A stretch of 62,418 nt of DNA from Candidatus Saganbacteria bacterium (lineage in GTDB: Bacteria > Margulisbacteria > WOR-1 > JAPLLA01): positions 56,715 to 119,132 of the forward strand of contig JAPLLA010000032.1 in the NCBI GenBank assembly GCA_026387795.1, written 5' to 3'. Positions 8,576 through 43,917 of this stretch are shown here, in pieces. The position numbers were made by a program, and so were the translations under genes. Positions within the stretch are counted from its first letter, which is position 1. Each line of letters starts with the position of its first letter. The notes under the pieces are model-generated. The model saw only the letters and a list, made by a program, of their open reading frames with translations. It ran no database searches and had not been told where the DNA came from.

Positions 8576-8576
8576 A

Positions 8577-8810: not shown

Positions 8811-8896
8811 TCTCCGTATAGTGAAATTATTTTTCATCCTCTACGATAAAGTTGTATTACAGAGGTATTCATTTTTAACTAATAAGGGAGCAATTA

Positions 8897-10350: not shown

Positions 10351-10519
10351 ATTCTAACACAAATTCCTTAATCCCATGAACCCGGATCTATCACTGGATT
10401 ATGATTTTCACTGATATCTCAGGATATATTTTAATCTGCGAAATCCTGGGACAATCCAAAATCCAGGGATAAGATCTGCGAAGATGGGATTATGAAATTA
10501 TTAGTAGGTAAAGATAGTC

Positions 10520-11632: not shown

Positions 11633-11633
11633 A

Positions 11634-14055: not shown

Positions 14056-14835
14056 CTATACAGTATCAATTACTCTTCCTGCTGCAATCCCGCAATAAAC
14101 TACTCCTTGGCGAGATGGATCAATCTTCATGGGCCCCCCAATATTTAATTCCGCTGCTATTATATCTAAATAAGTATAGTGGCCTTGCTTGCCGAAAAAA
14201 GCACCGTACGCGCGGCTTTCAAGGAGTGCCATCCTTGTTTCTCGTGTTTTCAGAACCTTTTCTGCAACAGTATCTGGTAAGGTTGTAAGGTCGATCCCAT
14301 AAAACATGGCAACAGCATCAAGCAGTCCTTCGGCCTGAAAAACGCTTGTGGAATGGATGAAGCCAGCCTCGTTTGTCCCTCCTATTCTCCCACAAATATG
14401 TAAGGGATCCCTTTTTAACCCAAAGACTACTTCCCATAATTGTCTGCCTACTGATACGCGGCGTACGTTACCCAACAGTTCCAAAGGAAAGCTTGGTTTT
14501 TCTCCTTGCGGCAATAGGGACGTTGCTCTCCTTATCCGTTCTTTCCTAAAATCAAATGGTCCTGCTTCTGGATGCGTACGTTCTGGAGCCACAAAATTAG
14601 CGGGATCAACAACCTGTATCATAAAAGCCTGGTCAAACTCGGCTACTTTCATGGCTTTTACAGCATCGCTACGACGGAAAAGATCAGAGGCGCGCATATG
14701 TGGCTGAGGCTTATTTGGCCGATCAATCGAGCGCCAACGGTTAGCAGGATTTCTCTCCCGCCTTTCCGCAATAGTTAGGGGTAGGCCGTACCTTTTTTCT
14801 TGGGGTATATCTAGGCGTGCTTGTCTTGTATCCAT
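14056..14835 (-). CDS. hypothetical protein inserted between pyrK and pyrD
   Basis: 259-aa ORF co-oriented with the pyr genes. No recognisable motif. Confidence 0.55.
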   Translation of the reverse strand: MDTRQARLDIPQEKRYGLPLTIAERRERNPANRWRSIDRPNKPQPHMRASDLFRRSDAVKAMKVAEFDQAFMIQVVDPANFVAPERTHPEAGPFDFRKERIRRATSLLPQGEKPSFPLELLGNVRRVSVGRQLWEVVFGLKRDPLHICGRIGGTNEAGFIHSTSVFQAEGLLDAVAMFYGIDLTTLPDTVAEKVLKTRETRMALLESRAYGAFFGKQGHYTYLDIIAAELNIGGPMKIDPSRQGVVYCGIAAGRVIDTV

Positions 14836-18883: not shown

Positions 18884-18958
18884 TGGAGGTGCGGGGGAGA
18901 TTTGAACTCCCGAATAACAGTTTTGCAGACTGCTCCCTTGCCACTTGGGTACCGCACC
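18884..18958 (-). tRNA. tRNA-Cys (GCA)
   Basis: Cloverleaf folded by hand: acceptor GGTGCGG/CCGCACC, anticodon loop CTGCAAA, T-arm GGGAG-TTCAAAT-CTCCC, discriminator T, encoded CCA. Confidence 0.9.
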
Positions 18959-18970
18959 ATGAGAACCGAT

Positions 18971-19000
18971 ATTATATCAAAATTCCCTATCAGATTCCAA
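18971..19000 (-). promoter_or_regulatory. sigma70-type promoter with extended -10, reading into tRNA-Cys
   Basis: On the minus strand: TTGGAA, 18 nt ending in TGa, then TATAAT, 12 nt upstream of tRNA position 1. It lies entirely in element DNA. Confidence 0.5.
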
Positions 19001-19083
19001 AATTTAATATGTTTTGCCTCTTCTCTGAAAAAGCCATATTTTGTTAGGAAAGAGGTTTATTTGAGTTGATTTGAGTTGGTTTT

Positions 19084-19100
19084 GTTAGACAATCGTTAGA
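19084..19100. repeat. GTTAGA-N5-GTTAGA direct repeat near the left end of the element
   Basis: GTTAGACAATCGTTAGA. The same 11-bp-spaced pair occurs at 26071-26087 near the other end, so these are candidate integrase arm-type sites. Confidence 0.4.
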
Positions 19101-19173
19101 AAGAAAAGGCCCATAAAGTTAAATTGTTTTTAAAAAGTTGAGGAGTATAATTAACAGGCAAAAGGGGGCAAAA

Positions 19174-19569
19174 ATGCAGATAACGATAAATAGGAAGAAT
19201 GTTTCTATTATTACGGTTGTTGTGGTTGCTCTTTTTACATATTTACCTACTATTGCAGAAATTCTTTTTCCAAGACATGTAACTCTTTTCCATTTCTTTA
19301 TTCCTTTTTTTGAATTTCCTAATTTCGGTGCAAATGGTGGTTTTTCTCCGATAGTTTATATTCTTGCGGTTCCCTTTGCCTTGCTTAAAGGATGTGTTTG
19401 GGGATTAGTTATGTATTTATTAGGTTTTTTGGGAACGAAGTACATCAAAAATAGGACAGCTCGTCTTTGGACTATAGCATTAGTTTTTATTCTAGTATTT
19501 ATTAAATTTGAGGCAATCGGTGCGGTTTTAATAACTTTTATGTTCTTAGCTGCAATGGCGGGGTTTTAA
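19174..19569 (+). CDS. small integral membrane protein
   Basis: Four hydrophobic segments. The ATG at 19174 lies within the track ORF 19138-19569. Confidence 0.45.
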   Translation: MQITINRKNVSIITVVVVALFTYLPTIAEILFPRHVTLFHFFIPFFEFPNFGANGGFSPIVYILAVPFALLKGCVWGLVMYLLGFLGTKYIKNRTARLWTIALVFILVFIKFEAIGAVLITFMFLAAMAGF

Positions 19570-19754
19570 AAGTTAAACAGTTCCTTTAAAGTTACCTCCA
19601 GCCCATCTGCAATTCTTTCCAACGTAGACAGCTTTGGGTCAATTGCTCCTTTTTCTATCTCACTGAGGTTCCCTTTTGCGAGGTCGTTTTCATAGGCGAG
19701 CTTTTCGATGGTTAGACCTTTTTGGCGTCTTAAAGAGGCTATTCTTTGACCCAT
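19566..19754 (-). CDS. XRE-family HTH transcriptional regulator
   Basis: MGQRIASLRRQKGLTIEKLAYENDL...LSTLERIADGLEV is a Cro/CI-type HTH. The track ORF extends to 19859. Confidence 0.7.
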   Translation of the reverse strand: MGQRIASLRRQKGLTIEKLAYENDLAKGNLSEIEKGAIDPKLSTLERIADGLEVTLKELFNF

Positions 19755-19857
19755 TTTCTTCCTGATGTCCACCTTGGTTCCCTCCAGGTTCCTTTTAGTA
19801 TAGGTATTTTTTGTGGTACAATGGTTCCCTGTGGGGAACCAAAAGGAGGGAGTGAAC

Positions 19858-20970
19858 ATGCTAAAGTGTGTATTTTGTGGTAAAGAGCTTCCTGTTTATG
19901 GTAAAGAACTTCCTGATCGTACGATGACTTGTCCGCATTGTGGTAAAAGTGTTTATCTTGGTTTGGGCATTGTTTTTCTTCTTTTTGCAACAATCATTGC
20001 TTTTATTACTGGCGTTATTGGGATGGCCATTGTTTTATTACTCATACTGGTTTTGATGATAATCACTGTTGTAGTAAAACCAAAAGATAAAATGGTTGGG
20101 CTAATATTAGCTATAAAAGGAATATGGCTGATGCTAAGGAAGCAGAGCTTGGGCAGTTGCAAGAAATGCGGTAAGGAGTTTTCGTTTATTGAGTTTATAG
20201 CCGACAGAGTATTATGCAAAAAGTGTAATGAGCAATTACTTGTTGAATTAGCTCAAGCAGAAGAAACAATTAAGACAACAAAATGCATAACCGAAGAACA
20301 AATAGCCACATTAAAAAAACTAAGCAAGAATGCGTTACTTAAACTGTATAAACATGTCTATAGCGATTTTGAGTCAGATAAAGAATTAGAAAGCTGCGAG
20401 CTAGCAACATTAAACAAAATGCAAGAGGCTTTTGATTTGACAAATGAAGAAGCCGATCTTGATAACAAGATAAAACCATATATTTATATAAATAGCATTA
20501 GAGACAAAAACTGTCTTCCTGTAGCGGATGTCAAAATAGAATATGGGGGGCAATTAATTTTAAAAAAGGACGAGGTCATTCATTTTGCTGACAATGCTGT
20601 TTTGAAGGAAATCAAGGCGATCAGTCTTGGTTATAGAGGCGGCTCACAGGGAATAAGTATCCCAATTGCAAAAGGGATCCGCTACAGAGTCGGTGTTTCT
20701 AGGGGTAATTTTGTTAAAGAAAATCGCTTACTCCAGACCTCATCAGGAGCTCTGATAGTTACTAATCAGCGGCTGTTCTTACAGCCATATCCTGGATGCA
20801 AACCGGCGAGTATCCCACTAAACAAGATATTGTCTCATTGTTGTTTTGGTAATGGCATAGAAGTCTTTATAGAAGGCAGAGAAAAAAGCTATTTCTTTGA
20901 AATCCATAAAACCGGTTCTATAGAAATATTCGAAATGTGCCTTAACTATTTATTAGGGCAAGTAGAATAA
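19858..20970 (+). CDS. membrane protein with two zinc ribbons and a C-terminal soluble domain
   Basis: Strong RBS AAGGAGGG. CVFCGK...CPHCGK, then 3 TM segments, then CKKCGK...CKKCNE, then a ~170-aa C-domain (GALIVTNQRLFL, bPH/GRAM-like pattern). Confidence 0.6.
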   Translation: MLKCVFCGKELPVYGKELPDRTMTCPHCGKSVYLGLGIVFLLFATIIAFITGVIGMAIVLLLILVLMIITVVVKPKDKMVGLILAIKGIWLMLRKQSLGSCKKCGKEFSFIEFIADRVLCKKCNEQLLVELAQAEETIKTTKCITEEQIATLKKLSKNALLKLYKHVYSDFESDKELESCELATLNKMQEAFDLTNEEADLDNKIKPYIYINSIRDKNCLPVADVKIEYGGQLILKKDEVIHFADNAVLKEIKAISLGYRGGSQGISIPIAKGIRYRVGVSRGNFVKENRLLQTSSGALIVTNQRLFLQPYPGCKPASIPLNKILSHCCFGNGIEVFIEGREKSYFFEIHKTGSIEIFEMCLNYLLGQVE

Positions 20971-21137
20971 TAGAGAAACTGGTTCGAGTCAAATTGTTTA
21001 GGGCTAAAGATAATCGACGGCTTAGAAATTTCTCCTGCTGAGTTTTTTAAGGGGCTTTAGATTTGTTTTAAGTGCTTCTTCTTCTGTTGGATGTGTTCTG
21101 CCTACCTCTTCTAAGGTCTTTACGTTAAAACTTTTAG

Positions 21138-21830
21138 ATGTATAATTCTGTTGTAACAAGCGGTGAAAATCGGGTAGAAAATGGTGAAAATGTGGCAAAA
21201 AAAGAGAAAACGCTGGTCAATGATAAATTTAAAGCCAAAGCGAATCGATTGGTTAATAATGATAAGTTTAAAGATGAACTTAAAAAATTACGAGAGCAAT
21301 TTAAAATTCCTATTAATGGGATGACGTATGAGGAAGAAAGGATTTGGTATAAAGATAAATGGGGCAAGGGTATTCAGGAGATAAAGAATTTCCACTTTGC
21401 ATTGTCAAAATTTAGGGGAAAATTTAAACTTTATTCAAATTGGGGGATTTTTTTACTCCATTACATCTTATCTAATAAATTAGACTATCGCCATTTTCCA
21501 CAACATTCTTTCGATTTACGCTGGCATTACAATGAAGACACTTATGAAAATGAATTACATATAATTATTTTTCCAAACACAACGATTGATGACATAAAAA
21601 ATGATTGGGCAGAAATTAAAAAGAGACAAAAGAGACTTTATTCTTATAAGGAAAAAAGCCCAAGAGATAAATGGTGCATTGAAAGAGATTCATGGTTTTA
21701 TGAACTGTGGAAAAGGGGCCTCACCTGTGAAGAAATTGCAGATATCAGATATACGGAATTCCCTAAAGAAAAACCAGTCCCAGATGCAGACCTCGTTAGA
21801 AAAGCTATCAATCGCCTCAAAAACGTATGA
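21138..21830 (+). CDS. hypothetical protein (C-terminal HTH-like segment)
   Basis: 230-aa Lys/Asn-rich ORF; the C-terminal LTCEEIADI... is HTH-like. Confidence 0.45.
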   Translation: MYNSVVTSGENRVENGENVAKKEKTLVNDKFKAKANRLVNNDKFKDELKKLREQFKIPINGMTYEEERIWYKDKWGKGIQEIKNFHFALSKFRGKFKLYSNWGIFLLHYILSNKLDYRHFPQHSFDLRWHYNEDTYENELHIIIFPNTTIDDIKNDWAEIKKRQKRLYSYKEKSPRDKWCIERDSWFYELWKRGLTCEEIADIRYTEFPKEKPVPDADLVRKAINRLKNV

Positions 21831-21970
21831 TTTTTGTCGGTATTATAGCGATTTTTGCGTGACAATAAATCCTCTAAAGTAACTTCATCGACACAACCAT
21901 CTATGCTTGATATAAGTGTATTACCAGTAAGATGCTGGAATTTAGGCGTGCTTAGTATCAAAGAAAGGTA

Positions 21971-22168
21971 GTGGTTAAAATTAAATCCATAACTCCATTA
22001 AAGGCGATCCGAGCAAAATGTCTTGATTGTTCAGGCAGAAGCAAGCAGGAAATTAAATTATGCCAAATTCCCGATTGCCCATTATTCACATATCGTTTTG
22101 GTAAGAATCCAAATAGAAAAGGCATTGGTGGTAATGGATGGGCTAGCAAGCCTAAAAGTATAACTTGA
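21971..22168 (+). CDS. small Cys-rich (zinc-finger-like) phage-type protein
   Basis: AIRAKCLDCSG...KLCQIPDCPLF is a four-Cys pattern. GTG start. Confidence 0.45.
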   Translation: MVKIKSITPLKAIRAKCLDCSGRSKQEIKLCQIPDCPLFTYRFGKNPNRKGIGGNGWASKPKSIT

Positions 22169-22201
22169 GTTCGATAAATAAGTAGAAAAGAGGTGTTTAA
22201 A

Positions 22202-22510
22202 ATGAGGGAAGAGATACGTTTATCAGAAATACAGATTTTACCTGTTAAACCCCAAAATGGACTAGTTGCATTTGCTTCATTTTGCTTAAATGAGCAGTTC
22301 TATGTTGGGAATATAGCTATTTATACTACACCTGATGGTTATGGTTACCGCCTTGTATATCCAGACAAAATGCTCCCGAATGGGAAAAGAGTTAGCTTGT
22401 TCCACCCGATTATTAAAGAAGCAGGGGAAGCGATTAACCTGGTGATAACAGAAAAATACAAAGAGCTAATTATGGACTTGGAAATTAAGAAGGATATTTT
22501 TGAAAACTAA
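22202..22510 (+). CDS. SpoVG-like protein
   Basis: IQILPVKPQNGLVAFASFCLNEQFYVGNIAIYT...R.VYP......R.S.FHPI..E resembles the SpoVG fold signature often carried on mobile elements. Confidence 0.55.
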   Translation: MREEIRLSEIQILPVKPQNGLVAFASFCLNEQFYVGNIAIYTTPDGYGYRLVYPDKMLPNGKRVSLFHPIIKEAGEAINLVITEKYKELIMDLEIKKDIFEN

Positions 22511-22531
22511 AAAGTAGAGAAAGGATTGAAG

Positions 22532-22864
22532 ATGACTAGGAAGAAGAGTGGAGCACCACCGTTTGTAATGTTAAGGAAGGATTTGCTGAAAGACCCTGAA
22601 TGGCAAAGATTATCAAGTTCCGCCAAGATTATTTATATCTATTTACGGGCAAAATTTAATTGTAAAACCTATAGTGAGGTTTCTTTGTCTTACTCAGAGG
22701 TTAAAGACATGATGAGCACAAAAACAATAAGTCGAGCGTTTAAGGAATTGCAGGAAAAAGGCTTTATAGAGAAAGTGAAGCAGGGCGGGTTATTCGGGGG
22801 TATCTGCTCGTATAAGTTTATCGGTCCCTACAAAGATTTCTTTTATAAAGGCTACCGTGTTTAG
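22532..22864 (+). CDS. winged-helix DNA-binding protein (replication/regulatory)
   Basis: ...ISRAFKELQEKGFIE is a wHTH-like pattern; small basic protein. Confidence 0.45.
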   Translation: MTRKKSGAPPFVMLRKDLLKDPEWQRLSSSAKIIYIYLRAKFNCKTYSEVSLSYSEVKDMMSTKTISRAFKELQEKGFIEKVKQGGLFGGICSYKFIGPYKDFFYKGYRV

Positions 22865-23052
22865 CCATAGAGGCTGGCATATATCTATATCTTTGTAGAA
22901 AGGAAAGAACTGTTTTAAATGATTTTGAGAGGGAGATGTGGAAAAAGGAAAGAACCAATTGGTCAAAACAGCATTCAATATGGAAAAAGTAAAGCGATGA
23001 TATGGAAAAAATAAAGCTGCCTTTTGATTGATGTGTTTAGGGAGGAATATAT

Positions 23053-23448
23053 ATGTCCGAATTACAAAATACTACAGATTTTGACGAATTAGACGGAATT
23101 GACAGGGCAATCATTCTGGAATCCCAGGCTAATCCAGCTATAACGCAGCAGGAGCTTGCTAACCAATTGGGGATAAGTCGGCAAGTGGTAAACGCCAGGT
23201 TTAACTCCGCTAAGGTTCAGGTGGCATTGAGAGGGGTTTTCAAGGATGCTGTAGCGATCCTCAAAGACAATCAGGCTGAAGCCGCAAAGGTAATGGCTGG
23301 GTTGTTGGGATCTGATAATGAGAATGTCAGGTTCAGAGCAGCAGAATTTATTTTAAAAGACCTAATACTTCCAGAGTCAGAAGATGATGTCTTTTCATGC
23401 AAAAAACTAGCGGAAACGTGGAAGAAGGCGTTGGGAGTGTCAATATAG
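23053..23448 (+). CDS. HTH-domain protein
   Basis: ITQQELANQLGISRQVVNARF is a classical HTH. Confidence 0.5.
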   Translation: MSELQNTTDFDELDGIDRAIILESQANPAITQQELANQLGISRQVVNARFNSAKVQVALRGVFKDAVAILKDNQAEAAKVMAGLLGSDNENVRFRAAEFILKDLILPESEDDVFSCKKLAETWKKALGVSI

Positions 23449-23449
23449 T

Positions 23450-23668
23450 ATGGAAGCCAATGGGCAGAATATGGAAGAAATCTTTGATAAGGAAGGCTTA
23501 GCTGCTTTGCTTAAGGTGGAGCCTAAAACCGTTAATTACTTGGTTTATACAGGGCAGGTTCCACGTTTTAAATGTGGGAGGGAATATAGATTTCTTAAGT
23601 CGGAAATATTGAAGTGGATTCACCGTAGAATGAAAGAAAATAGGGGTAGTTTGTTAGAGGATTGTTAG
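23450..23668 (+). CDS. xis: excisionase-family DNA-binding protein
   Basis: LLKVEPKTVNYLVYTGQVPRFKCGREYRFLKSEILKWI matches the MerR/Xis-type helix-turn-helix_17 pattern. It lies upstream of the integrase. Confidence 0.65.
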   Translation: MEANGQNMEEIFDKEGLAALLKVEPKTVNYLVYTGQVPRFKCGREYRFLKSEILKWIHRRMKENRGSLLEDC

Positions 23669-23804
23669 AAGGTTTTAAGCATATGAGAGGGTTTTTTGCC
23701 TGTTTATTAATAAAACTTGATGGTAGGGGTGCAGTTAGGTTAACTGATTGCCTGAGAATCTTACATAAAGGGGTTTAAAGAAGGGTGGTTTGTTTGCGGA
23801 ATAT

Positions 23805-23999
23805 TTACTTAATGAGGGAGTCAATGGAAACTTGGAGAACCTTTGCAATGCTGGTTAAAGTGGAAAGGGAGGGATTGCTGTGAGTCCCTTGTTCGAGTTT
23901 TTGAAGGACAGCCAAAGATATCTGGGCTTTCTCTGCGAGCTTTTGTTGAGAAAGACCTCTCTTTGTGCGAAGGCTTTTAATTTGTTTGCCTATTGCCAT
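23805..23999 (-). CDS. XRE-family HTH regulator (repressor-like)
   Basis: IGKQIKSLRTKRGLSQQKLAEKAQIS...LSTLTSIAKVLQVS. Divergent from the integrase gene. Confidence 0.75.
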   Translation of the reverse strand: MAIGKQIKSLRTKRGLSQQKLAEKAQISLAVLQKLEQGTHSNPSLSTLTSIAKVLQVSIDSLIK

Positions 24000-24018
24000 A
24001 ACGACTAGATGATATCAC

Positions 24019-24048
24019 TTGACTGGGTTTTATGGTAGTAGTAATATA
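24019..24048 (+). promoter_or_regulatory. candidate sigma70 promoter for the integrase gene
   Basis: TTGACT, 18 nt, TAATAT, in the 86-nt divergent interval between the XRE gene and int. Confidence 0.35.
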
Positions 24049-24085
24049 ATACTAGTAAAAAAAGAGTATAAAGGGGAGGTGGAAT

Positions 24086-25204
24086 ATGGACGATTACTCA
24101 AAAATCTGGCAGACAGAGAAAAACGGTGTTATTTATGCCATTTTTAGGCTAAATGGTAAGGTGAAGTGGGAGAAGATAGGGGAGGCCAGGTTTTTATCCA
24201 AGAATGTTATAGATAGGAAGAAAAAAGAGATCATGGAAAGGCTTGCTCGTGGCGAATACATTGAAAAGAAGGTTTTGTTTGAGAATATGGTTGAGGAGTT
24301 TCTTAAATATTCTAAGAAGACCAAAACCCCAGGGACATTTAGGACGGCTTCTGGACACTGTAAGTCACTGCTCCGTTACTTTAAAGGGTATCTCCTTACA
24401 AAACTTACACCCTATATAATAGAGGGCTATATAGACTACAGGAGAGAGCAAAATCCCGACATATCCAACAAAACCATTATAAATGAGTTGTTTACTTTAT
24501 CTGCCATTATTAGAGAATCCATAAAAAGGGGATACCTTAAAGAAAACCCTGTTAAAAGGATAGAAAGGCTCAATTATACTCGCCCAGAAATGAAATTCTT
24601 TACCAAGCAGGAAATAGACCTTATTTTGGCTAATTGTAGTAGGTATTTAAGAAGTATCCTTTTAGTAGGGCTAACCACTGGTTTAAGAAAATCCGAAATA
24701 TGCCACATGAAATGGGAAAACATTAACTTTGAAGAGGGGATTATTGTTATCAAGTGTGATGAAACCTTTCAGACTAAGAATAAAAGGAACCGCATAGCTG
24801 TTCTCGTGCCCCAATTAAAGGAGGAATTGCTGTTTTTAAAGGATCACTGGATTGATCCTGTAACCAACGAGGTTAAGCAGCGGGAATCGTGGCAGACGCA
24901 GTATGTGTTTTGCCATCAAGACGGGCACCCCATCAATAACTTTGCCAATGCCTTCTATAAGCTAATGAGAAAGTTGGGCATCAAGAAGGCTTCTCCCCAT
25001 ACTATGAGGCATACCTTTGTTACTTACCATATGAACTATGGAGACCCCTTCCTAACCCAAAGGATGGTAGGGCACAGTGACCCAAGGGTTACGCAAGGGT
25101 ATTATCATTTGCAGGTTGAGAGGATGAGGGATAGCATGGGGCCGATTGAGGCTTTGATTGGAACCCGTTTGCCTAGTAAAACAGCGATTTCTATTAATAA
25201 TTAG
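24086..25204 (+). CDS. int: tyrosine recombinase / phage-type integrase
   Basis: SAM-like N-domain. Catalytic pattern GLRKSEI (Arg), HTMRHTF (HxxR) and GHSDPRVTQGYYH (His, Tyr). Confidence 0.9.
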   Translation: MDDYSKIWQTEKNGVIYAIFRLNGKVKWEKIGEARFLSKNVIDRKKKEIMERLARGEYIEKKVLFENMVEEFLKYSKKTKTPGTFRTASGHCKSLLRYFKGYLLTKLTPYIIEGYIDYRREQNPDISNKTIINELFTLSAIIRESIKRGYLKENPVKRIERLNYTRPEMKFFTKQEIDLILANCSRYLRSILLVGLTTGLRKSEICHMKWENINFEEGIIVIKCDETFQTKNKRNRIAVLVPQLKEELLFLKDHWIDPVTNEVKQRESWQTQYVFCHQDGHPINNFANAFYKLMRKLGIKKASPHTMRHTFVTYHMNYGDPFLTQRMVGHSDPRVTQGYYHLQVERMRDSMGPIEALIGTRLPSKTAISINN

Positions 25205-25208
25205 AGGA

Positions 25209-25751
25209 TTATAGGATTTTTAGTTCTCTCATGCGTAATTCATAGGGTTTTAAATCAAATTTCATAGCTCTTGTTTCTTTTTCTTCATCCGTTTTAGTTA
25301 AAAAGTCGAATCCATTTTTTTTGTAAAATGCTAGAACCCCAGGCCTATTATAGGCATCCGCTAATAAGAACCTGCAACCAGTTTTATTCTTATAGACAAA
25401 TAAATATTTAATAAAACCTAGTATTTCGCTGCCAAAACCAGCCCTATGATATTTTTTGTTAATAGCTAACCGTCCGAGCTTTACTGCGGGAATTTTCCTG
25501 TGTCTTTTTTCATTAGGAATCTTTCTATTTAATTTGTTGTTTGTTTCGATGCTGTCGTTTAAAACGCTGAAATAGGCGACAATGTCTTTGTTTTGTATGT
25601 GATGGAAAAGATAGGTGACAGTAAGGAGTTGTTCTTGGGATAAGAAAGCATCCTGATAGAAAAAATCGTTTAAATCTGCATCTCCACAATCAAAAGATGC
25701 ATTATTAGGAGGAGAGGATAGCCTTTCAAAGGATAAGTGCTTAGATAGCAT
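25209..25751 (-). CDS. GNAT-family acetyltransferase (TacT/KacT-like toxin candidate)
   Basis: FDCGDADLNDFF start region and ...RLAINKKYHRAGFGSEIL (acetyl-CoA motif A). It overlaps a small upstream ORF by 11 nt. Confidence 0.65.
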   Translation of the reverse strand: MLSKHLSFERLSSPPNNASFDCGDADLNDFFYQDAFLSQEQLLTVTYLFHHIQNKDIVAYFSVLNDSIETNNKLNRKIPNEKRHRKIPAVKLGRLAINKKYHRAGFGSEILGFIKYLFVYKNKTGCRFLLADAYNRPGVLAFYKKNGFDFLTKTDEEKETRAMKFDLKPYELRMRELKIL

Positions 25752-25923
25752 GTTCGACCAGAGGTTCTTTCTTTGTAACAGATTCGAAAATTTTCCTAGT
25801 GCGGATAACTTCTTCCTTAGATACCATTTTCATATTAGGCATATCAATTTCTTTTAAAAATTGTTCAGCTTCTTTATCTTTTAGTATAGGGGTGGGCGTA
25901 ATCGGTTTTGCCATTTTAATCAT
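25741..25923 (-). CDS. small protein, putative antitoxin of the GNAT toxin
   Basis: 60-aa ORF translationally coupled to the GNAT gene. No motif recognised. Confidence 0.4.
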   Translation of the reverse strand: MIKMAKPITPTPILKDKEAEQFLKEIDMPNMKMVSKEEVIRTRKIFESVTKKEPLVEHAI

Positions 25924-26070
25924 CTCCTATTAGTATATCGGAGGGGAAATGGAATAATTTCACTTTTTAAAGTTATTGTTTGTGAACCTTCTTTATGGCT
26001 CTTATTTTATAATATATATCGTATTAAAGCAATAATAACTTGCATTCGGAAGATGCATAAAAATTTTACT

Positions 26071-26087
26071 GTTAGAAACCCGTTAGA
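26071..26087. repeat. GTTAGA-N5-GTTAGA direct repeat near the right end of the element
   Basis: GTTAGAAACCCGTTAGA; counterpart of 19084-19100. Confidence 0.4.
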
Positions 26088-26169
26088 AACGCATCCCAGA
26101 GTAGCAGTTTAAGCCTTAGAATTAGTTGTTCTGATAATAAAAAATAGAGTTAGTGGAAAATTGCCGAAG

Positions 26170-26208
26170 GTTTTGCAGACTGCTCCCTTGCCACTTGGGT
26201 ACCGCACC
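26170..26208 (-). repeat. second copy of tRNA-Cys nucleotides 1-39 (att-site repeat)
   Basis: 39/39 identical to 18920-18958; the flanking bases differ on both sides. Confidence 0.9.
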
Positions 26209-26301: not shown

Positions 26302-26736
26302 CTACAAAAGAACCTCTTCTTTAGGCGCAAAATTGGTTGCCATGGTCCAGGTTACGGCTTTTCCGCCAGATAAGCGGTATACTTTAAAGGTGTTGTAAAA
26401 ATCTTTTAACGGTCCGGATTCTCTCCAGGGTTTAAGGAATTGCCGCGATGGATGTGCATACATTTCATCTTTTAGGACTTTATCTTCCAGAATTTCTAGC
26501 TTTCCCGATACCCTAACCTGAACCCCATTTTTAAAATCATTAAAGCAGAGCTCAACTTTGGGGTTACTTTCTATTTGATGATGGACTGCTTTCATGGAAC
26601 CGCTGTGAAAAATAATCCCATTTTCATCTGCTTTATACAAAAACATCCCCCTGCAGTGCGGCTGATCTCCTTCAACTGTTGCCAGATGAAACGCAGGATT
26701 GGCATTTATCATCTCAAGTATTTCTTTTTTGTTCAT
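26302..26736 (-). CDS. pyridoxamine 5'-phosphate oxidase-family FMN-binding protein
   Basis: 144 aa; the PAFHLATV..G.PH.R.M......G.IFH....K......NPKVE pattern of the split-barrel flavoprotein family. RBS GGAGGGG. Confidence 0.8.
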   Translation of the reverse strand: MNKKEILEMINANPAFHLATVEGDQPHCRGMFLYKADENGIIFHSGSMKAVHHQIESNPKVELCFNDFKNGVQVRVSGKLEILEDKVLKDEMYAHPSRQFLKPWRESGPLKDFYNTFKVYRLSGGKAVTWTMATNFAPKEEVLL

Positions 26737-26849
26737 ACAATTCCCCTCCTTTTAAAATCCTATCATATGGCTAATTTTAATCAATCCCCAAGTGAAATTT
26801 ACCAAACATTGCTACGATAGATTGATGGAAGGGAAAACAGGGTGCAAAA

Positions 26850-27932
26850 ATGCTATCCACAAGGGAACTTGGAAGGGCAACCAGAGATGGGAGGGTCTTG
26901 CTAAAAGACCCTGGAGAAAAGCGTACGGTTTTACTCTCCAATACGGAACAATTGGAACAACTACGGCGTCGCGCTAGGCTGCAATTGGATGGAACTACAC
27001 AAACCGATCATTATGTTTTTTCCGATTTTACAGATCGTCTAACCGGCAGAAGGCTGCATGCGGTTGCCCCATTATTTGGCAGAGAAGACTTCCAAAGGGA
27101 CACCTTTTGGCAGCAGCGGACAGAATTGCTAATGCACATGAATGCCTTGGGTATGCAGTTAGGCGGTTCCCAAGTGGTAAAAATGGCAATGGCTTCTTGT
27201 GTACAGGTAAACGGATGGGACAAAGGAGTTTCTGGTTACTACGATACACTATTGGGAATTGCGCAAAATGATTTTACGGAAATGGCTGATCGCTACGCTG
27301 CTGGAGAGAGATATGACCCTGCCCAAAATGTGTTGGGTTCGCCACAATATAGCCATACCAAACTCTTTGCCTGGATCTATTATGTGGAAAGTCTGGAGAT
27401 TGCTTCTGTTGCACAGGAAAAGGGAGAGGGGATAAGGGTGGTTGAATTGGGAAGTGCTTTTGGCAGCCCCATTTTCACCAAAAGGGATCTTTTACCCGAT
27501 CAAGACGTTACTTTTTACGGCGTAGACATAAGAGACGATCTTTTATCCGCATCCAGAAGATTTGTGGCTAGTCGGCAGATGCAGGGCGTGCATTTTGCCC
27601 ATGCAGACGTTACCAAAAAAGGTTGGCATGCAAGGATGATGCATATAGTTTCTGGCCATCCGGCTGATGTAGTGGTTTCTAGCCATTTGCTTGAACATCT
27701 CCCTGGTGACCCCAAACAAATTATTGGAAACTGGCTGCGGCTTACAAAAAAAGCACTGGTTGTTTCTGTTCCGCATACCATAGAAGAAGTTAACATGTCC
27801 GACCATGAGCACAATTTAGGAGTTGAAGGATTGTCTGGGTTGGCAGATTACTTTGAATCTGAATATCATGGACGCATACAAGTAAAACGGGACCAGATAG
27901 ATGCAGGTATCCTTATTTTAATAAAAGTATAG
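26850..27932 (+). CDS. class I SAM-dependent methyltransferase with ~190-aa unknown N-terminal region
   Basis: Motif I VVELGSAFG, then YGVDI, HADV and VVSSHLLEHLP (post-I/II/III pattern). Confidence 0.75.
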   Translation: MLSTRELGRATRDGRVLLKDPGEKRTVLLSNTEQLEQLRRRARLQLDGTTQTDHYVFSDFTDRLTGRRLHAVAPLFGREDFQRDTFWQQRTELLMHMNALGMQLGGSQVVKMAMASCVQVNGWDKGVSGYYDTLLGIAQNDFTEMADRYAAGERYDPAQNVLGSPQYSHTKLFAWIYYVESLEIASVAQEKGEGIRVVELGSAFGSPIFTKRDLLPDQDVTFYGVDIRDDLLSASRRFVASRQMQGVHFAHADVTKKGWHARMMHIVSGHPADVVVSSHLLEHLPGDPKQIIGNWLRLTKKALVVSVPHTIEEVNMSDHEHNLGVEGLSGLADYFESEYHGRIQVKRDQIDAGILILIKV

Positions 27933-27960
27933 AAAAAATCTGCAAGGAGAGAAAAATAAA

Positions 27961-30309
27961 ATGGCGGAACTGTTTGCTAAAAGAGTAGGGTTGGGGCTGC
28001 CAAGCCCGGTAACCTGCATAAAGTTACAAAATCATGCTACTGCAGCATACGAAGAGCTAAGTGCTGTAAATAGGGCAAAATATAGGCATGCTTTTGGTAA
28101 TCGGCTCATCCAGGATTTTATGTCCAGTCCGCAAATGGCAATTGACATGGTAAGCGAAGCTTTTGGCTGCGAAAATCAACAAGTAGCCAGGGTGTTTACT
28201 GCTTTGATCCGGGAACTATTGATCCAGCCTATGGCAAGTTCATGGGCAATTCTAAAGAACATGGAAACAAAATATGGGATGGCCATTACTGTGCCTGAAC
28301 TTCAGCAGTATTATCAGGTTTTGCAGAGCAGCAAAATTGTGCAAGACATGATTCGCTACAATAGTTCCGCAACCAAAGTCATTGCAGTTGCGCGCGGGGT
28401 CTTATCTACAACTTTGGGAACAACCTATTATTTGGATGTGCAGACTACAGATGCTTGTCCGAGCAGGTGTACAAAATGCTGGAGGTTTTATGAGGATGAG
28501 GCTGGAGTGGCTAGGCTGGTAAGAAGAATAAGGCCGGCTGGGTCTAAAATGCCCGATTTTGACGATTTCAAAGCAGTGGTCAAGCAAGTTATTGATTTGG
28601 GAGTAGAACAGTTGTCCAGTACCGGGGGAGGAGAGCCAATGATGAACCCTCGTCTTCCGGAATTATTCCAATTTGCAAAAGCATATGCACGCAGCCTGGG
28701 CCGGGAGCTGCGGACCTTTGTTCCAAGCTGTGGATTGGGAGTGGTTTTCCAAAACGAAGACGCATTAAGAAGAACAGTGAATTCTTTGGATAATTTAAGG
28801 TTTAGCGTTGATAGTTTTGATCCTGATTTTGTCTGTAGGCTGCATGGCTTAACCCGGGCTAAATATGATGAACTTATAGATAATATCAGACGGACAGTAG
28901 CAATGAAAAGACAAGAAGGATCCAATATGCAAATAGAAATATTGATCCTTATGTATGAAGGAAGCTACCAAACTATGGAACAGACGATCGAAACTGCCAG
29001 ACAATTAGGAGCAACCAGGGTTTTGATTAATAGCACAGTAGACAAGCCTGAATTAAGGTCCGGAGGAGTGGAACAAGAAGCCGCAATAAGAAGAGTAGCA
29101 GAAAGAGTAGCCAGAGGTGACTATGGGGACCTGGTGGTTGAAATCGATCCTGCACTTGAAACCTCTATTCTTGCAGTAGCGCAGCCAGTTGATTTACAGC
29201 AGTTTGAGCCGGCAATAGGAAAATTTGGTGGCTGCATGAAAAACATTGTTGGCTTGACGCCGGTTATTACGGCGGACGGCACTTTTCATGTTTGTTTCCC
29301 GTGTTCGCAGCCCCCGGTAGCAAATAAAGGGGGCATTTTTAAAATTGGCCATATTTTACAAGAGCCATTTTTAGCTCTCATGGAAAGGATGAAAGGTGAA
29401 TACCGCGGGATTGATATTGAAAGGGATTGTTCTCCAGATTGCCGCGATATTTTATATTTTAACGCCATCATTAGAAAAGTTATTGAAGATTGGATACTCG
29501 GGATTCCCCTGGCAGCGCAGCCGTTTTTTGATCGCACTACTGCAGTTGGGACTATGCGCAATCCTATGCATCAAGAGGGTTATCGCGTACAAACTGGAGC
29601 GCAAGACAGGATTGCAAAAGCAGCAGAATCTGTTTATCTGGATAAAGTAAGCGATTTTAACCACGTTACTACTTATTTACAAGAAATAGGGGTGGGGAAT
29701 GTAGCGGTAAAATTAGAAGCCGGAGTTCCGGTTGTTTTGCTGGATAAGTATGAAATTCCAAACTTATTTGAAATGAGCTTGGTCATAGAAGGAGAGAGTG
29801 TCTATGCATATTCTTATGAACTGGGGCTGGTATATTCTGTAGCAACCGGAAAGACTACAAAATTCGGCGAAGAAATAGAAGGAGCAGGGGAACAAATTAG
29901 AGAAATGTTTCAAGAATTTAACGCTCTTAAAACAAGCGGATTGGCATATTCTCCGCATGCGGCACCAAGCGGACTAGAAGAAGTGGGGAGACTAAAACAA
30001 TCGATTAGAGAAAAAATGTTATTAGCTAAATATGCCGAATGGCCGGAGCCGCTCGTAACAGCTGCATATGCATATTATAAAAGGGCAATAGCAGGGGAAG
30101 TCAGAGCAGAAAATCCGGATGATGCAAATAATGGGATTGTTTTGATGACACTTTTTGAGCAAGAAGCAGCAAAGTCTTTGGCAAGAAAGCAGGAGATGCT
30201 AAAGCGGCTGCATGCCTATCTATTGCAATTGGCGTCAGTCAGGGAATTTTGCCGGGATTTTGTCAATATCTATAAGCGGCTTACTGAAAACGGTTATTTT
30301 CAAAGCTAG
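27961..30309 (+). CDS. radical SAM protein with SPASM/twitch-like Cys cluster and long unknown N- and C-terminal regions
   Basis: CPSRCTKC (CxxxCxxC), GGGEPMMNP, and later GGC-x15-G-x4-C-x2-C and CSPDC. 782 aa. RBS AAGGAGAG. Confidence 0.8.
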   Translation: MAELFAKRVGLGLPSPVTCIKLQNHATAAYEELSAVNRAKYRHAFGNRLIQDFMSSPQMAIDMVSEAFGCENQQVARVFTALIRELLIQPMASSWAILKNMETKYGMAITVPELQQYYQVLQSSKIVQDMIRYNSSATKVIAVARGVLSTTLGTTYYLDVQTTDACPSRCTKCWRFYEDEAGVARLVRRIRPAGSKMPDFDDFKAVVKQVIDLGVEQLSSTGGGEPMMNPRLPELFQFAKAYARSLGRELRTFVPSCGLGVVFQNEDALRRTVNSLDNLRFSVDSFDPDFVCRLHGLTRAKYDELIDNIRRTVAMKRQEGSNMQIEILILMYEGSYQTMEQTIETARQLGATRVLINSTVDKPELRSGGVEQEAAIRRVAERVARGDYGDLVVEIDPALETSILAVAQPVDLQQFEPAIGKFGGCMKNIVGLTPVITADGTFHVCFPCSQPPVANKGGIFKIGHILQEPFLALMERMKGEYRGIDIERDCSPDCRDILYFNAIIRKVIEDWILGIPLAAQPFFDRTTAVGTMRNPMHQEGYRVQTGAQDRIAKAAESVYLDKVSDFNHVTTYLQEIGVGNVAVKLEAGVPVVLLDKYEIPNLFEMSLVIEGESVYAYSYELGLVYSVATGKTTKFGEEIEGAGEQIREMFQEFNALKTSGLAYSPHAAPSGLEEVGRLKQSIREKMLLAKYAEWPEPLVTAAYAYYKRAIAGEVRAENPDDANNGIVLMTLFEQEAAKSLARKQEMLKRLHAYLLQLASVREFCRDFVNIYKRLTENGYFQS

Positions 30310-30400
30310 ATCAAAAAGTTTAATCATAAAAATTAAATTCATTTTAGATATATGCGATAACGTTAATAGTAAAAGTCGCGCACAAAAACGGAGCGAATAA

Positions 30401-32170
30401 ATGCTTCCTTTGACCAATTTTGATTATGCTGAATTAGCAATAAAACATCCAGCCTTGAAACTGGCAACGGCATCTGCTGCCGGGCGCATAGATTATCGCT
30501 TTAAAAGTGTACTTGATCTGAATGTTTTTAGCTCAGGAAACTCGGGTGGATCTTATGCCAGAGCCGGACTTGGAAGTGACCCAAGAAGAAGGGCCCGGAC
30601 TTTACTGGAAAGAATGAGGGATGTCCCAAACGATGCTCTAAACAGGCATATTCTTGGTGATGAGATTTGCAGATCCCTTAGGGACAGGTCATTGTCTCAA
30701 GATGCTTTGGCTGCGGAAGTGGGAAGGGTTTTTCGCGGAAGGATCCGCTCTCTTTATATAGATAATATGGGAGAAGTGCATCTTGTTTTTCCCAATACCA
30801 CCGAGCCTTCCCAGGAACAGCGTAAAAGAGGCAGCCTAAAAGAAGAATGGGACCGCATTTTTGCTTTAAACCGTGAACAACATGTCCCAGTAGGAGAACT
30901 CCCCGTTTCCTTGCCTGTCCCAGATTTTCTTAGAAGGGCAGTTGCCCAGTATCCGGTTTTTGCGCCGCTAAAAACAAGAGGGGCGCTTGGCGCTTTACTT
31001 GGCTTGGGCAGGAGCAGGGATTTGGATTTGGGGACTTCTTTAAGGAGTTGTTCTCCTCGCGAGACGGTCCGCAATTTGTCCGCATTGGGTTTTGTAGAAA
31101 ATGCTGACGCAATTCCTTCTCATGAAACTTTTGCAGTAGCACAACACAGGGATTTAAGCGCGGTTGTCTCTTTGGATGCCCATCATTACAGCCTGAGAGG
31201 AAGGACTTCCAGTTCAGGCAAGGGAACAAACCTATATAATGCAATGGCCTCTCTTTTGCAGGAGAGGGTAGAGCGCATGTCTGCATTTGCCGGCTGCACT
31301 GCTAATTGGCCGGCTGGATATGTTGAAGATAAAAAGCTGATCAAGGCAGCTTATTCCGACATGGTTTCCGCAGGCTTAAATGTTCTGGATCCTCATACGC
31401 TTAACTTGGGAGAGCCATACCAAAACGAACCGATTTACTGGACCCTGGCGCACCTGTATGTAAATGGTGCGTGGGTAGACGGGTTTGCTCCTGCACAACT
31501 GGTTTGGACCAACACCAATTTTGACGAAAGAGAAATTTATCCGGCTTCTGCCAATGGCTTGGCAGCAGGAAACACCTACGAAGAAGCAATGCTGCATGGA
31601 TTAACCGAAGTAATTGAAAGGGACGGATTGGCAAATACTTGGTATGAACCTTCGCGTTGCTTTCACTTACAAGCAAGGGGAGGACAGATCGGAAGTATTG
31701 TGGAAGCATATCAGGCTGACGGCGGACTTTCTTTAATGGATATTACTACAGATGTCGGGATCCCGTCTTTTCAGGCATTTGCCTGGCTAAACCAGCAGCT
31801 TCTTTGCGGCAGCGGCGCACATCCGGATGCCAGGATTGCAGCCATGCGCGCTATTTGTGAGTTGTCTGCTACAGTTGGAGCATATAATATTATTTTTGGT
31901 CCCAGCAGGGTTATTCCCACTCCAAAAGCAACATTTGCAACAAGAGAATATAAAGACCTTCCAAATTATTCTTCAGGAAATGTGGGGAAAGATCTAGAGT
32001 GGATCCTTAATCGTCTCTCGTCAATGGGAGTCATTCCTGTGGTAGTTAATTTGACCAGAAGTGACTTCAAAGTTCCTGTAGTCAGAGTGATTGTGCCGGG
32101 CTTAGACCAGCCTGAAGGAGTAAGTGTCAGGCAATTAGTGCATTTACAAAGGGCGCAAGCACAGGTCTAG
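30401..32170 (+). CDS. YcaO-domain protein with ~260-aa unknown N-terminal region
   Basis: SSSGKGTN...A.ASLLQERVER, GLAAGNTYEEAMLHGLTEVIERD, DITTDVGIPSF and GSGAHPDARIAAMRAICE are YcaO superfamily hallmarks. Confidence 0.8.
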   Translation: MLPLTNFDYAELAIKHPALKLATASAAGRIDYRFKSVLDLNVFSSGNSGGSYARAGLGSDPRRRARTLLERMRDVPNDALNRHILGDEICRSLRDRSLSQDALAAEVGRVFRGRIRSLYIDNMGEVHLVFPNTTEPSQEQRKRGSLKEEWDRIFALNREQHVPVGELPVSLPVPDFLRRAVAQYPVFAPLKTRGALGALLGLGRSRDLDLGTSLRSCSPRETVRNLSALGFVENADAIPSHETFAVAQHRDLSAVVSLDAHHYSLRGRTSSSGKGTNLYNAMASLLQERVERMSAFAGCTANWPAGYVEDKKLIKAAYSDMVSAGLNVLDPHTLNLGEPYQNEPIYWTLAHLYVNGAWVDGFAPAQLVWTNTNFDEREIYPASANGLAAGNTYEEAMLHGLTEVIERDGLANTWYEPSRCFHLQARGGQIGSIVEAYQADGGLSLMDITTDVGIPSFQAFAWLNQQLLCGSGAHPDARIAAMRAICELSATVGAYNIIFGPSRVIPTPKATFATREYKDLPNYSSGNVGKDLEWILNRLSSMGVIPVVVNLTRSDFKVPVVRVIVPGLDQPEGVSVRQLVHLQRAQAQV

Positions 32171-32172
32171 AC

Positions 32173-32244
32173 TGGGCGGTAGTGGAATCGAACCACTGCT
32201 CTTCTCGGTGTCAACGAGATGTTTTACCATTAAACTAACCGCCC
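32173..32244 (-). tRNA. tRNA-Val (GAC)
   Basis: Acceptor GGGCGGT/ACCGCCC, anticodon arm TCTCG-TTGACAC-CGAGA, T-arm CAGTG-GTTCGATT-CCACT, discriminator A, no encoded CCA. Confidence 0.9.
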
Positions 32245-32387
32245 CTAAAATAACTAACAACACGCTCGCCCTCGCTTTGCTCGGGCTCGCTACAACAAAC
32301 AACTTACAACTAATTATTATATAATAAATTCCTTCGGTTGTGAGGTCCGACGTTTGTCGGACCGTGTTGTTAGTCGTTAGTTGTTAG

Positions 32388-32744
32388 TTATTTTTTCAGC
32401 GTCTTGCGAAGGCCGGAAAGCTGTTTAACAATGCCTTCAGCCTGAGCAAGCATTATATCGTAAACCTTACTGCTGATAAACCCATTTTCTTTAGAAATAT
32501 CCAATATTGCTACGGTTTCATTCAATGAACCTATGGATAAATCAACAAAATGCCGAAATTCGTTATCTGATCCTCGATCCGATCCTTCCGCCAGGTTTAG
32601 CGCTATTGATACGGCGGCTCTTCTTAATTGGGAGGTTAAACCAAATTGTTCTTCCCTGGGGAATTTTGAGGAAATAGTATAAACATTCTTAATGAATTTC
32701 TTTGCTTCTTTATAAACCGGAAACTCCAAAAACCTAAAAGACAT
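32388..32744 (-). CDS. four-helix-bundle protein (23S rRNA intervening-sequence protein family)
   Basis: F.FPVYK.A......VY.....FP.EE.FGLTSQLRRAAVSI..NLAEG is the TIGR02436/PF05635-type signature. RBS AGGAGG. Confidence 0.85.
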   Translation of the reverse strand: MSFRFLEFPVYKEAKKFIKNVYTISSKFPREEQFGLTSQLRRAAVSIALNLAEGSDRGSDNEFRHFVDLSIGSLNETVAILDISKENGFISSKVYDIMLAQAEGIVKQLSGLRKTLKK

Positions 32745-32813
32745 GCCAATATCCTCCTAATTATAATATTTTTCCTTTGGTTGTTAGTTGTTAGTCGTAA
32801 GTTGTTAGTTAAC

Positions 32814-32889
32814 TGGAGCGGGAGACGGGTCTCGAACCCGCGACCTTCTGCTTGGGAAGCAGATGCTCTACCAACTGAGCTACTCCCGC
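32814..32889 (-). tRNA. tRNA-Gly (CCC)
   Basis: GCGGGAG acceptor, anticodon arm TCTGC-TTCCCAA-GCAGA, T-arm GCGGG-TTCGAGA-CCCGT, discriminator T, encoded CCA. Confidence 0.9.
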
Positions 32890-43831: not shown

Positions 43832-43917
43832 ATATTCTCAAATATCTCATATTTATTTTACTCTGAAAGTGGGAAAAAGTGAAGAAAAATACGATATATA
43901 TAAGGAGGTTTTTAATA

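Follow-up and report, generated by a model that had tools for sequence, protein, structure and literature searches.

A class I S-adenosylmethionine (SAM) methyltransferase, a radical SAM enzyme and a YcaO protein encoded side by side raise the question of whether they form one biosynthetic system or are separate systems that became neighbours. The locus in question lies in a stretch of 62,418 nucleotides (the window, i.e., the whole stretch of DNA that was analysed) of contig JAPLLA010000032.1 from Candidatus Saganbacteria bacterium (assembly GCA_026387795.1). The three genes, which we call MT, rSAM and YcaO, had been taken in a sequence-only reading for a single uncharacterised system that modifies peptide or protein backbones. 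Our analysis suggests that the locus is probably a composite of two independently evolving modules, MT-rSAM and YcaO, adjacent only in this genome. The features on which the argument turns are these:

26850-27932, plus strand: MT, a class I SAM methyltransferase of 360 amino acids (aa), from its Pfam methyltransferase matches
27961-30309, plus strand: rSAM, a radical SAM enzyme of 782 aa (PF04055, E=1e-9)
28456-28479, plus strand: codons of CX3CX2C (C166, C170, C173), the radical SAM [4Fe-4S] motif, kept in 8 of 8 covering relatives
29233-29442, plus strand: Cys-rich block of rSAM, C425-x19-C445-x2-C448-x41-C490-x3-C494, a putative auxiliary Fe-S site, from its conserved cysteines
30401-32170, plus strand: YcaO, 589 aa (PF02624, E=3e-52)
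30401-31015, plus strand: N-terminal extension of YcaO, aa 1 to ~205, conserved in its clade and without known fold or family
31016-32170, plus strand: C-terminal YcaO domain of that protein, ATP-dependent and amide-activating (PF02624, TIGR00702, Foldseek match 6pe3)

Linkage was checked with hidden Markov models (HMMs) of the families against six-frame translations of every fetched locus. The six other rSAM loci all lack YcaO, and the seven other loci of the YcaO clade all lack MT-rSAM. MT is attached to rSAM in all six of the former, adjacent in three and fused in three. Among the adjacent pairs, one has a relative to which the window MT is 46% identical over its full length (L007), a second likewise has MT adjoining rSAM (L015), and the contig of the third (L009) starts with a matching 36-aa stub of the MT C-terminus before rSAM; in the fusions (P0010 in L010, P0014 in L012 and the protein of L014) MT stands at the rSAM N-terminus. 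MT is an obligate partner of rSAM, and the pair stands without any YcaO in bins that include Margulisiibacteriota, PVC-type and TGA-recoded ones. Since YcaO is missing from the rSAM loci, MT-rSAM is missing from the YcaO loci, and MT is linked to rSAM everywhere, the single three-gene system proposed from the sequence is not supported by these distant relatives. What stands at the locus is two new uncharacterised enzyme subfamilies within well-known superfamilies, seen side by side in this genome alone.

The methyltransferase and radical SAM pair

The rSAM family is exceedingly small: nine proteins among 5.8 billion, i.e., the window protein and eight relatives at 36-61% identity. It is present in four of ~185,000 species-representative genomes, namely a Margulisiibacteriota metagenome-assembled genome (MAG), a 'Planctomycetales' bin, a contig of 3.9 kb in a Methanosarcinales bin, and a bacterium without classification. 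Among the MAGs with the MT-rSAM pair are JBAZZP01 (Margulisiibacteriota), CAYYRJ01 and CAZIXI01.

Residues 185-306 of MT match class I methyltransferase models of Pfam at marginal scores, two of them above the cut-off (Methyltransf_31, 27.4 vs 27 bits; Methyltransf_11, 22.3 vs 21.2 bits). The motif VVELGSAFG that had been noticed in it is real, as L200, G201, S202 and G205 are invariant across the family, and so is HLLEHL. By its sequence, MT is classed as a class I SAM methyltransferase, with marginal scores, and none of the specific methyltransferase subfamilies fits (MftM reaches 28.6 bits against a cut-off of 200). Its N-terminal domain of ~190 aa is family-specific and conserved, with invariant residues from P74 onward.

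The radical SAM core that had been read from CPSRCTKC and GGGEP is confirmed by PF04055, which matches aa 161-315 (39.2 bits against a cut-off of 29.5, E=1e-9). CPSRCTKC is the cluster motif, its cysteines are conserved in the covering relatives, STGGGEP is conserved in the family alignment, and these features assign rSAM to the radical SAM superfamily. The protein consists of an N-terminal helical domain, likewise conserved in the family, the core, the Cys-rich block, and an extra C-terminal domain (~aa 545-782). Conservation is strongest in the Cys-rich block, where C425, C445, C448, C490 and C494 are kept in every covering relative, and these five extra invariant cysteines are probably the site of an auxiliary Fe-S cluster. 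The likeness to a SPASM/twitch domain proposed earlier fares less evenly: the five conserved cysteines and weak matches to SPASM (PF13186) in six of the nine family members (best E=5e-4) speak for it, but the window rSAM itself has no match at E<=1, and the label is plausible but unproven. The spacing Cx19Cx2Cx41Cx3C differs from the canonical 7-Cys SPASM motif.

The AlphaFold2 model of rSAM, which rests on the nine-sequence family alignment (pLDDT 78.7, pTM 0.78), has DesII as its best Foldseek match (E=1e-12, target TM 0.58-0.67, ~520 aligned columns). SkfB, anSME, CteB and PqqE come at 1e-7 or weaker, five orders behind DesII, and the structural matches extend to viperins, BlsE and BtrN, which act on sugars or nucleotides. 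A profile search of PDB sequences with the rSAM family gave nothing at E<=0.1. As modelled, rSAM resembles DesII in structure only and is not a member of the DesII family. A predicted fold nearest to DesII, and not to the maturases of peptides that are ribosomally synthesised and then modified post-translationally (RiPPs), also goes against the peptide chemistry earlier ascribed to rSAM. Taken with an alpha-glucan genomic context, which is thin, this DesII-like fold leads us to favour, over a leader-bearing peptide, a substrate of rSAM that would be sugar-like, nucleotide-linked or a glycan.

The context in question comes from three loci. In an 'uncultured Planctomycetales' MAG (CAYYRJ010000014.1, L014), one stop-free frame runs across 21.8 kb (1-21827; more than 7,275 aa) and is open at both ends; it contains GH77, GT5 starch synthase, GH13, MT-rSAM, HD, DUF1152, CofD-like and glucosamine-6-phosphate-isomerase-like domains, joined by 'NASAPVTGPP' linkers. 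GH94 genes lie downstream of MT-rSAM in L009, and a 1,202-aa GT1 gene adjoins it in L010. Two unassigned neighbours of the pair in L007, of 273 and 828 aa, were compared with YcaO and with its N-terminal extension and are unrelated to either. No housekeeping genes are shared between the window and the fetched loci.

One of the fusion genes deserves a separate remark. Under translation table 11, the gene at 194-3247 of L012 (Logan SRR13131472, GC 25%) has 20 in-frame TGA codons, and its deposited translation has W at positions where the family has an invariant G. This suggests a TGA-recoded genome translated with code 4; TGA read as Gly (genetic code 25) would fit.

We infer that MT and rSAM would act as a two-part enzyme. 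The radical SAM subunit, with its DesII-like three-domain layout, five additional cysteines and C-terminal domain, would abstract a hydrogen atom from a substrate encoded elsewhere, most likely either a glycan or a small molecule that is sugar-like or linked to a nucleotide, and MT would then methylate the same substrate or the product. A module that is rare, strongly conserved, always linked, joined in Rosetta-stone fusions, endowed with a sugar-enzyme-like fold and provided with five extra cysteines is a well-defined target for the discovery of new radical SAM chemistry.

The YcaO protein and its clade

The YcaO hallmarks of the third protein are borne out at full length. PF02624 covers aa 272-568 at 178 bits (cut-off 25.7), with positions 1-324 of the 325 in the profile aligned, TIGR00702 is matched at 98.6 bits (cut-off 75.65), and SSSGKG...QERVER and EEAMLHGLTEVIERD (GNTYEEA...EVIERD) align with the motifs of LynD, TruD and MusD. 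Across the clade E291 and E403 are invariant, and E288, R292, E406, R407 and D408 are conserved in at least 90% of the members. The ExxER/ExxERD residues are those that we take to bind ATP and Mg; the motifs are present and conserved in the clade. The AlphaFold2 model (pLDDT 80.2, pTM 0.85) retrieves 6pe3, 4v1v, 7u58, 6ci7 and 4q85 with Foldseek at E=1e-20 to 1e-13. The best match is the Methanocaldococcus jannaschii protein 6pe3 (E=1e-20, 24% identity, target TM 0.74), and the thioamide-forming YcaOs of methanogens (M. jannaschii, M. kandleri) rank first, followed by LynD, MusD, TruD and the Escherichia coli YcaO (EcYcaO). By full-length match, motifs and fold, the protein is a member of the YcaO superfamily.

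It falls in none of the subfamilies to which it was compared: the SagD model (TIGR03604) yields 111 bits, its cut-off being 219, the EcYcaO type (NF040716) 21 against 700, with no TPR family detected, and the McrA type (TIGR03266) 121 against 365, yet the latter is its best NCBIfam match (E=5e-35). Indeed, none of MT, rSAM and YcaO reaches an equivalog cut-off in NCBIfam. The YcaO C-terminus (...VHLQRAQAQV) has no proline-rich (PxPxP) tail, a feature that marks azoline-forming YcaOs.

The lower-rmsd structural alignments span ~340-465 columns and the query-normalised TM is below 0.5, which leaves the N-terminal ~200 aa without structural counterpart. The extension is mostly helical and basic (pI 10, against 6.9 for the whole protein), with an invariant P76, a nearly invariant D78 and a TGTSLR-like motif. 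Pfam gave no match to it in any of the 22 clade members examined, and neither Pfam nor the structure matches in the PDB revealed a RiPP recognition element (RRE)-like or E1-like domain. The extension regions of the three proteins were described from the sequence as unassignable, and no families were found for them. RRE-like winged helices had been thought worth seeking in these regions; in that of YcaO neither a PDB counterpart nor a Pfam match was found.

These traits lead us to picture YcaO as a stand-alone enzyme whose own N-terminal extension would replace an RRE/E1-like partner. It would use ATP to O-phosphorylate a backbone amide, in thioamide- or amidine-type chemistry, and its target would be a protein or peptide encoded elsewhere, in analogy with EcYcaO and uL16 and with YcaO and McrA. 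The partner-less E. coli YcaO is described as thioamidating the ribosomal protein uL16, a folded protein target (PMC13063428). Stand-alone YcaOs were only recently shown to thioamidate folded proteins (uL16, McrA), and further protein substrates are sought.

The clade to which the window protein belongs includes 97 cluster representatives at E<1e-30, most of them of 540-660 aa; many align from ~aa 146, some from aa 21, through to the end. It is visible only to an exhaustive HMMER search: indexed protein searches, with YcaO alone or with a clade profile, returned matches at 29% identity or less and to the YcaO domain only. This N-extended, partner-less clade makes up ~100 sequence clusters without assigned substrate.

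No neighbour is shared among the seven other loci of the clade. Four kinds of context deserve description. First, in L022 a defence island (4596-12716) with a ThsB-like TIR gene, QueC, Ogg-HhH, TGT/DpdA-like and SLATT genes is followed by the YcaO-clade gene, directly downstream of which come an unrelated 338-aa rSAM, a 71-aa membrane ORF and a Fic gene of the SoFic/PDC-S04 type; the YcaO, rSAM and Fic genes could belong to an uncharacterised conflict module. Second, in L019-L021 YcaO borders a variable region with a primase and a serine recombinase. Third, in L026 (9185-15929) YcaO is directly followed by an Rrf2 regulator and a block for sulfur mobilisation (ferredoxin, ThiI, cysteine synthase-like PALP, HcyBio, cysteine desulfurase, NifU, MnmA), a context, of one locus, that would suit a thioamide-forming YcaO in need of a sulfur donor. 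Fourth, N-extended YcaOs are embedded in giant proteins: P0023 (L024/L025 8001-14996, 2,331 aa), in which MTS-type methyltransferase and HATPase_c domains are present too, and which in L024 is followed by a Fic gene among housekeeping genes; and P0025 (L029 10001-25492, 5,163 aa). A YcaO domain is also embedded in P0019 (2,131 aa, annotated Omnitrophota). Besides these, YcaO in L027 has alpha-glucan genes near it and an unrelated rSAM at a distance of 2.4 kb. The LPG_synthase_C and Fic neighbours of the clade are only distantly alike and have no homologue in the window. Two sets of candidates were tried and rejected. The rSAMs near other clade members are unrelated to the window rSAM and to each other, and the giants P0019, P0023 and P0025 neither carry MT-rSAM nor share segments with the giant of L014.

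The defence island of L022, the Fic gene that again follows YcaO in L024 and the variable region of L019-L021 would fit a different account, in which the block, or a single module of it, serves as an anti-phage or conflict system, e.g., with a viperin- or DesII-like rSAM that makes a modified nucleotide or sugar and YcaO as a second effector. So would the weak matches of rSAM to prokaryotic viperins (pVip), the viperins among its structural neighbours, and the position of the block between two tRNA genes, adjoining an integrative element with a candidate toxin-antitoxin pair. We consider this account very unlikely. The pVip scores are low and confined to the rSAM core (NF038283, 22.8 bits against a cut-off of 180; PADLOC, 23.7 bits); among the PADLOC profiles pVip and mad2 alone matched the trio, both weakly (E 7e-6 to 5e-3), and no family was assigned; and against the PADLOC 2.0 system models there was no component match, YcaO having none at all and MT and rSAM weak generic ones. 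PHROG profiles gave zero matches to the three proteins, neither the rSAM nor the YcaO family is present on IMG/VR viral contigs, and the rSAM family was absent from a plasmid scan. Most other contexts of the relatives are housekeeping (L007, L024, L026, L029), and the codon usage of the block is that of the host.

The composite of two modules that we prefer has to be weighed against several observations that speak for a closer relation of the three genes, or against the substrate class that we favour: 1) the genes are co-oriented, with gaps of 28 nt between MT and rSAM and 91 nt between rSAM and YcaO in the ORF list, and AAGGAG and GGAG precede the start codons of rSAM and YcaO as ribosome-binding sites, all as the first description had it, so that co-transcription and cooperation are possible, there being no terminator-like site between rSAM and YcaO (scans for promoters and terminators did no better than chance and carry little information on an operon); 2) the comparison includes only six rSAM and seven YcaO-clade independent loci, all from distant lineages; 3) the YcaO clade recurs beside non-homologous rSAMs (L022, L027) and fused to an unrelated methyltransferase (P0023), and a recurring theme of YcaO, rSAM and MT could lie behind such proximity; 4) a SPASM-like Cys block is typical of peptide-modifying rSAMs, and of BtrN-type sugar enzymes too; 5) the likeness to DesII is structural only, given the empty PDB profile search and the nine-sequence model; and 6) the carbohydrate association of MT-rSAM concerns few loci only. 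In this genome the two modules are possibly co-transcribed, and their juxtaposition may or may not be functional.

From such observations one could construct a lineage-specific pathway, in which YcaO would form a thioamide or amidine, rSAM would functionalise a C-H bond and MT would methylate, all on one protein or peptide encoded elsewhere. The operon-like layout with its ribosome-binding sites and terminator-free 91-nt gap, the invariant SPASM-like cysteines of rSAM, and the clade members beside another rSAM (L022) or fused to another methyltransferase (P0023) would all fit, and YcaO has its best NCBIfam match in McrA-glycine thioamidation (121 bits) and its best structural match in the M. 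jannaschii YcaO. An analogy is offered by methyl-coenzyme M reductase (MCR), decorated by a YcaO, radical SAM methylases and a SAM methyltransferase (PMC7058361, PMC11796369). We nevertheless find the pathway rather unlikely, as the trio is in no other locus (0/6 and 0/7), MT-rSAM is self-sufficient without YcaO in other bins, the rSAMs near other clade members are related neither to that of the window nor among themselves, the rSAM fold is nearest to a sugar-nucleotide enzyme, and no candidate substrate was found. Genes for rSAMs are common in the genomes of anaerobes, and chance proximity to YcaO is plausible. The three genes might also be a working combination, elsewhere apart or inside giants, that acts jointly on one macromolecular substrate (a protein or something glycan-linked), with the YcaO N-terminal domain docking the substrate or rSAM. 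This too is unlikely; if true, it would be a new YcaO-dependent modification pathway without RRE, TfuA or precursor peptide.

Genomic setting of the block

The three genes share their interval of the chromosome with one further gene, between two boundaries:

26170-26208, no strand: right copy of a 39-nt direct repeat (tRNA-Cys element), left boundary of the block, from the exact repeat
26302-26736, minus strand: PNPOx-family flavoprotein gene (PF01243, E=6e-17)
32173-32244, minus strand: tRNA-Val(GAC), convergent with the YcaO gene, right boundary of the block, from ARAGORN and Rfam

The divergent PNPOx gene reported next to MT is confirmed by PF01243. No PNPOx gene was found in the other MT-rSAM or YcaO-clade loci; it is a mere neighbour, and no evidence ties it to either module. 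The YcaO stop codon is separated from the tRNA-Val on the opposite strand by 2 nt, and this tRNA is the sole Rfam element found in the block, where no riboswitch or leader was seen.

A YcaO, an rSAM with a SPASM-like block and a methyltransferase are a typical tailoring set of RiPPs, and we therefore considered a RiPP cluster with an unrecognised or distant precursor peptide, for which one might also invoke a 62-aa ORF (30212-30400) that terminates exactly at the YcaO start codon. We deem it highly improbable. No precursor ORF was found: the gaps of 28, 91 and 113 nt are too small for one, the small ORFs near the block all overlap longer genes in other frames, and no conserved small ORF stands beside any relative. 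As had been remarked from the sequence, the usual partners are missing too, with no gene for TfuA, E1/Ocin-ThiF or a nitroreductase-type (FMN-dependent azoline) dehydrogenase in a Pfam scan of 28 ORFs of the window, a set that took in the immediate neighbourhood and, beyond it, ORFs of at least 250 aa. The extensions revealed no RRE-like or E1-like domain, YcaO has no proline-rich C-terminal tail, and the block has no protease or transporter gene, its flanks being made of tRNAs, an integrative element and flagellar genes. There is a lesson for genome mining in this, since a textbook-looking cluster of YcaO, rSAM and MT is here not a conserved biosynthetic unit.

The block had also been described as occupying an island-like position. 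Two fully identical copies of the 39-nt repeat (18920-18958 and 26170-26208) bound a separate integrative element at tRNA-Cys, which stops before PNPOx, the repeat ending at 26208, upstream of the block. No tRNA-Val-derived repeat flanking the block was found in a search for one, and there is no integrase within it, the integrase belonging to the tRNA-Cys element. The codon usage of the three genes is host-like (KL 0.10-0.18, background 0.16 +/- 0.06), as is their GC3 (0.38-0.40, background 0.40 +/- 0.03), unlike the genes of the tRNA-Cys element, which deviate. With host-like codon usage, no flanking tRNA-Val repeat and no integrase of its own, the island reading is unsupported. Elsewhere the window consists of ordinary chromosomal genes (CstA, SerRS, FemAB, Mur ligases, PyrD, flagellar export genes).

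The tRNA-Cys element itself, inserted at tRNA-Cys(GCA), is ~7.25 kb long (18884-26208) and lower in GC content (0.34-0.41). Its cargo includes a tyrosine integrase (24086-25204), an HTH regulator and several ORFs without assignment. A GNAT acetyltransferase gene (25209-25751), the Pfam match of which is under the GNAT cut-off, is overlapped by a 60-aa ORF (25741-25923), and the two may be a candidate toxin-antitoxin pair.

On the other side of the block, short repeats of the GTTGTTAGTT kind, together with their reverse complement (32245-32400 and 32770-32812) flank a free-standing 23S-rRNA-IVP/four-helix-bundle gene (32388-32744, minus strand) between tRNA-Val and tRNA-Gly (32814-32889). Short-read assemblies from other sequencing runs (L001-L006) start within the tRNA-Cys repeat (L001 at 26179) and stop within tRNA-Gly (32843). 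The assembly L005, made from another run, matches at 99.96% identity as far as 32889, after which it runs on into a different gene, of the dCMP-deaminase family; this indicates a strain-level rearrangement at tRNA-Gly. Elsewhere in the window, an ORF of 1,159 aa (54894-58373, plus strand) and four ORFs in the range of 259-345 aa (594-1373, 8897-9835, 14056-14835, 43879-44916) have no Pfam match at E<=1e-5. MT and two window housekeeping proteins that were looked up are singletons at 90% clustering, so that the host lineage seems poorly sampled.

Likeness to known systems

The nearest known counterpart of rSAM in predicted structure is DesII, the TDP-4-amino-4,6-dideoxy-D-glucose deaminase of desosamine biosynthesis (8HZV/8HZY), with which it shares the order of domains and a core with CX3CX2C. 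The desosamine pathway includes a class I N-methyltransferase. The two proteins are 15-16% identical in the structural alignment, without detectable sequence homology, and rSAM is ~300 aa longer, with an extra C-terminal domain and five further invariant cysteines. DesII works in a TDP-sugar context, whereas no NDP-sugar pathway genes were found in the window block. It has been described as an N-terminal six-helix domain, an rSAM core and a beta-hairpin with two helices, with a single [Fe4S4] cluster and with no mention of an auxiliary cluster or of SPASM/twitch (PMC11434129).

The SPASM/twitch enzymes (anSME, SkfB, PqqE, CteB; BtrN) are second-tier structural matches, at 1e-7 to 1e-4. Like them, rSAM has a Cys-rich block after the core, but it comes without an adjacent peptide substrate, and its weak NCBIfam matches (tungsten-cofactor maturase, PqqE, ScmF) are far below the equivalog cut-offs.

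For YcaO, the best match is the methanogen YcaO of McrA thioglycine (TIGR03266; 6PE3, 6CI7), which acts on a protein and not on a RiPP precursor; the window protein differs from it by the extra ~200-aa N-terminal region, and no TfuA gene turned up in the scanned ORFs. The E. coli YcaO, which thioamidates Met82 of uL16 (NF040716), is partner-less and without precursor gene like that of the window, and close to it in length (PDB chains of up to 583 residues against 589 aa). Its TPR domain is C-terminal to the YcaO domain. The extra domain being N-terminal in the window protein, the order would be reversed between the two, and the pI differs as well, at 6.9 in the window protein and 4.4 in EcYcaO. 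The EcYcaO report describes the TPR domain of that enzyme as a 150-residue dimerisation domain, gives the pI of 4.4, and has the enzyme recognise a folded protein encoded elsewhere (PMC13063428). LynD, TruD and MusD align with the window YcaO domain at E=1e-14 to 1e-16 and are N-extended as well, but by ~400 aa rather than ~200 aa, and the extension of the window protein does not superpose on their RRE/E1-like domains; unlike them, it has neither a proline-rich C-terminus nor a precursor gene.

Finally, relatives of both modules are internal domains of giant ORFs like the Archaeovorin-type giants of Omnitrophota and PVC bacteria (bioRxiv 10.1101/2023.11.21.568195). Recurrent domains of these giants named in the preprint include GT5, methyltransferase, Radical_SAM and HATPase_c; YcaO is not mentioned in it. 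The giant of L014 resembles the Archaeovorin-type proteins of Omnitrophota. The window genes, unlike these giants, are free-standing in a housekeeping region, and the two modules were seen in no shared giant ORF. That each of them has relatives in Archaeovorin-like proteins provides a handle on the function of the giants.

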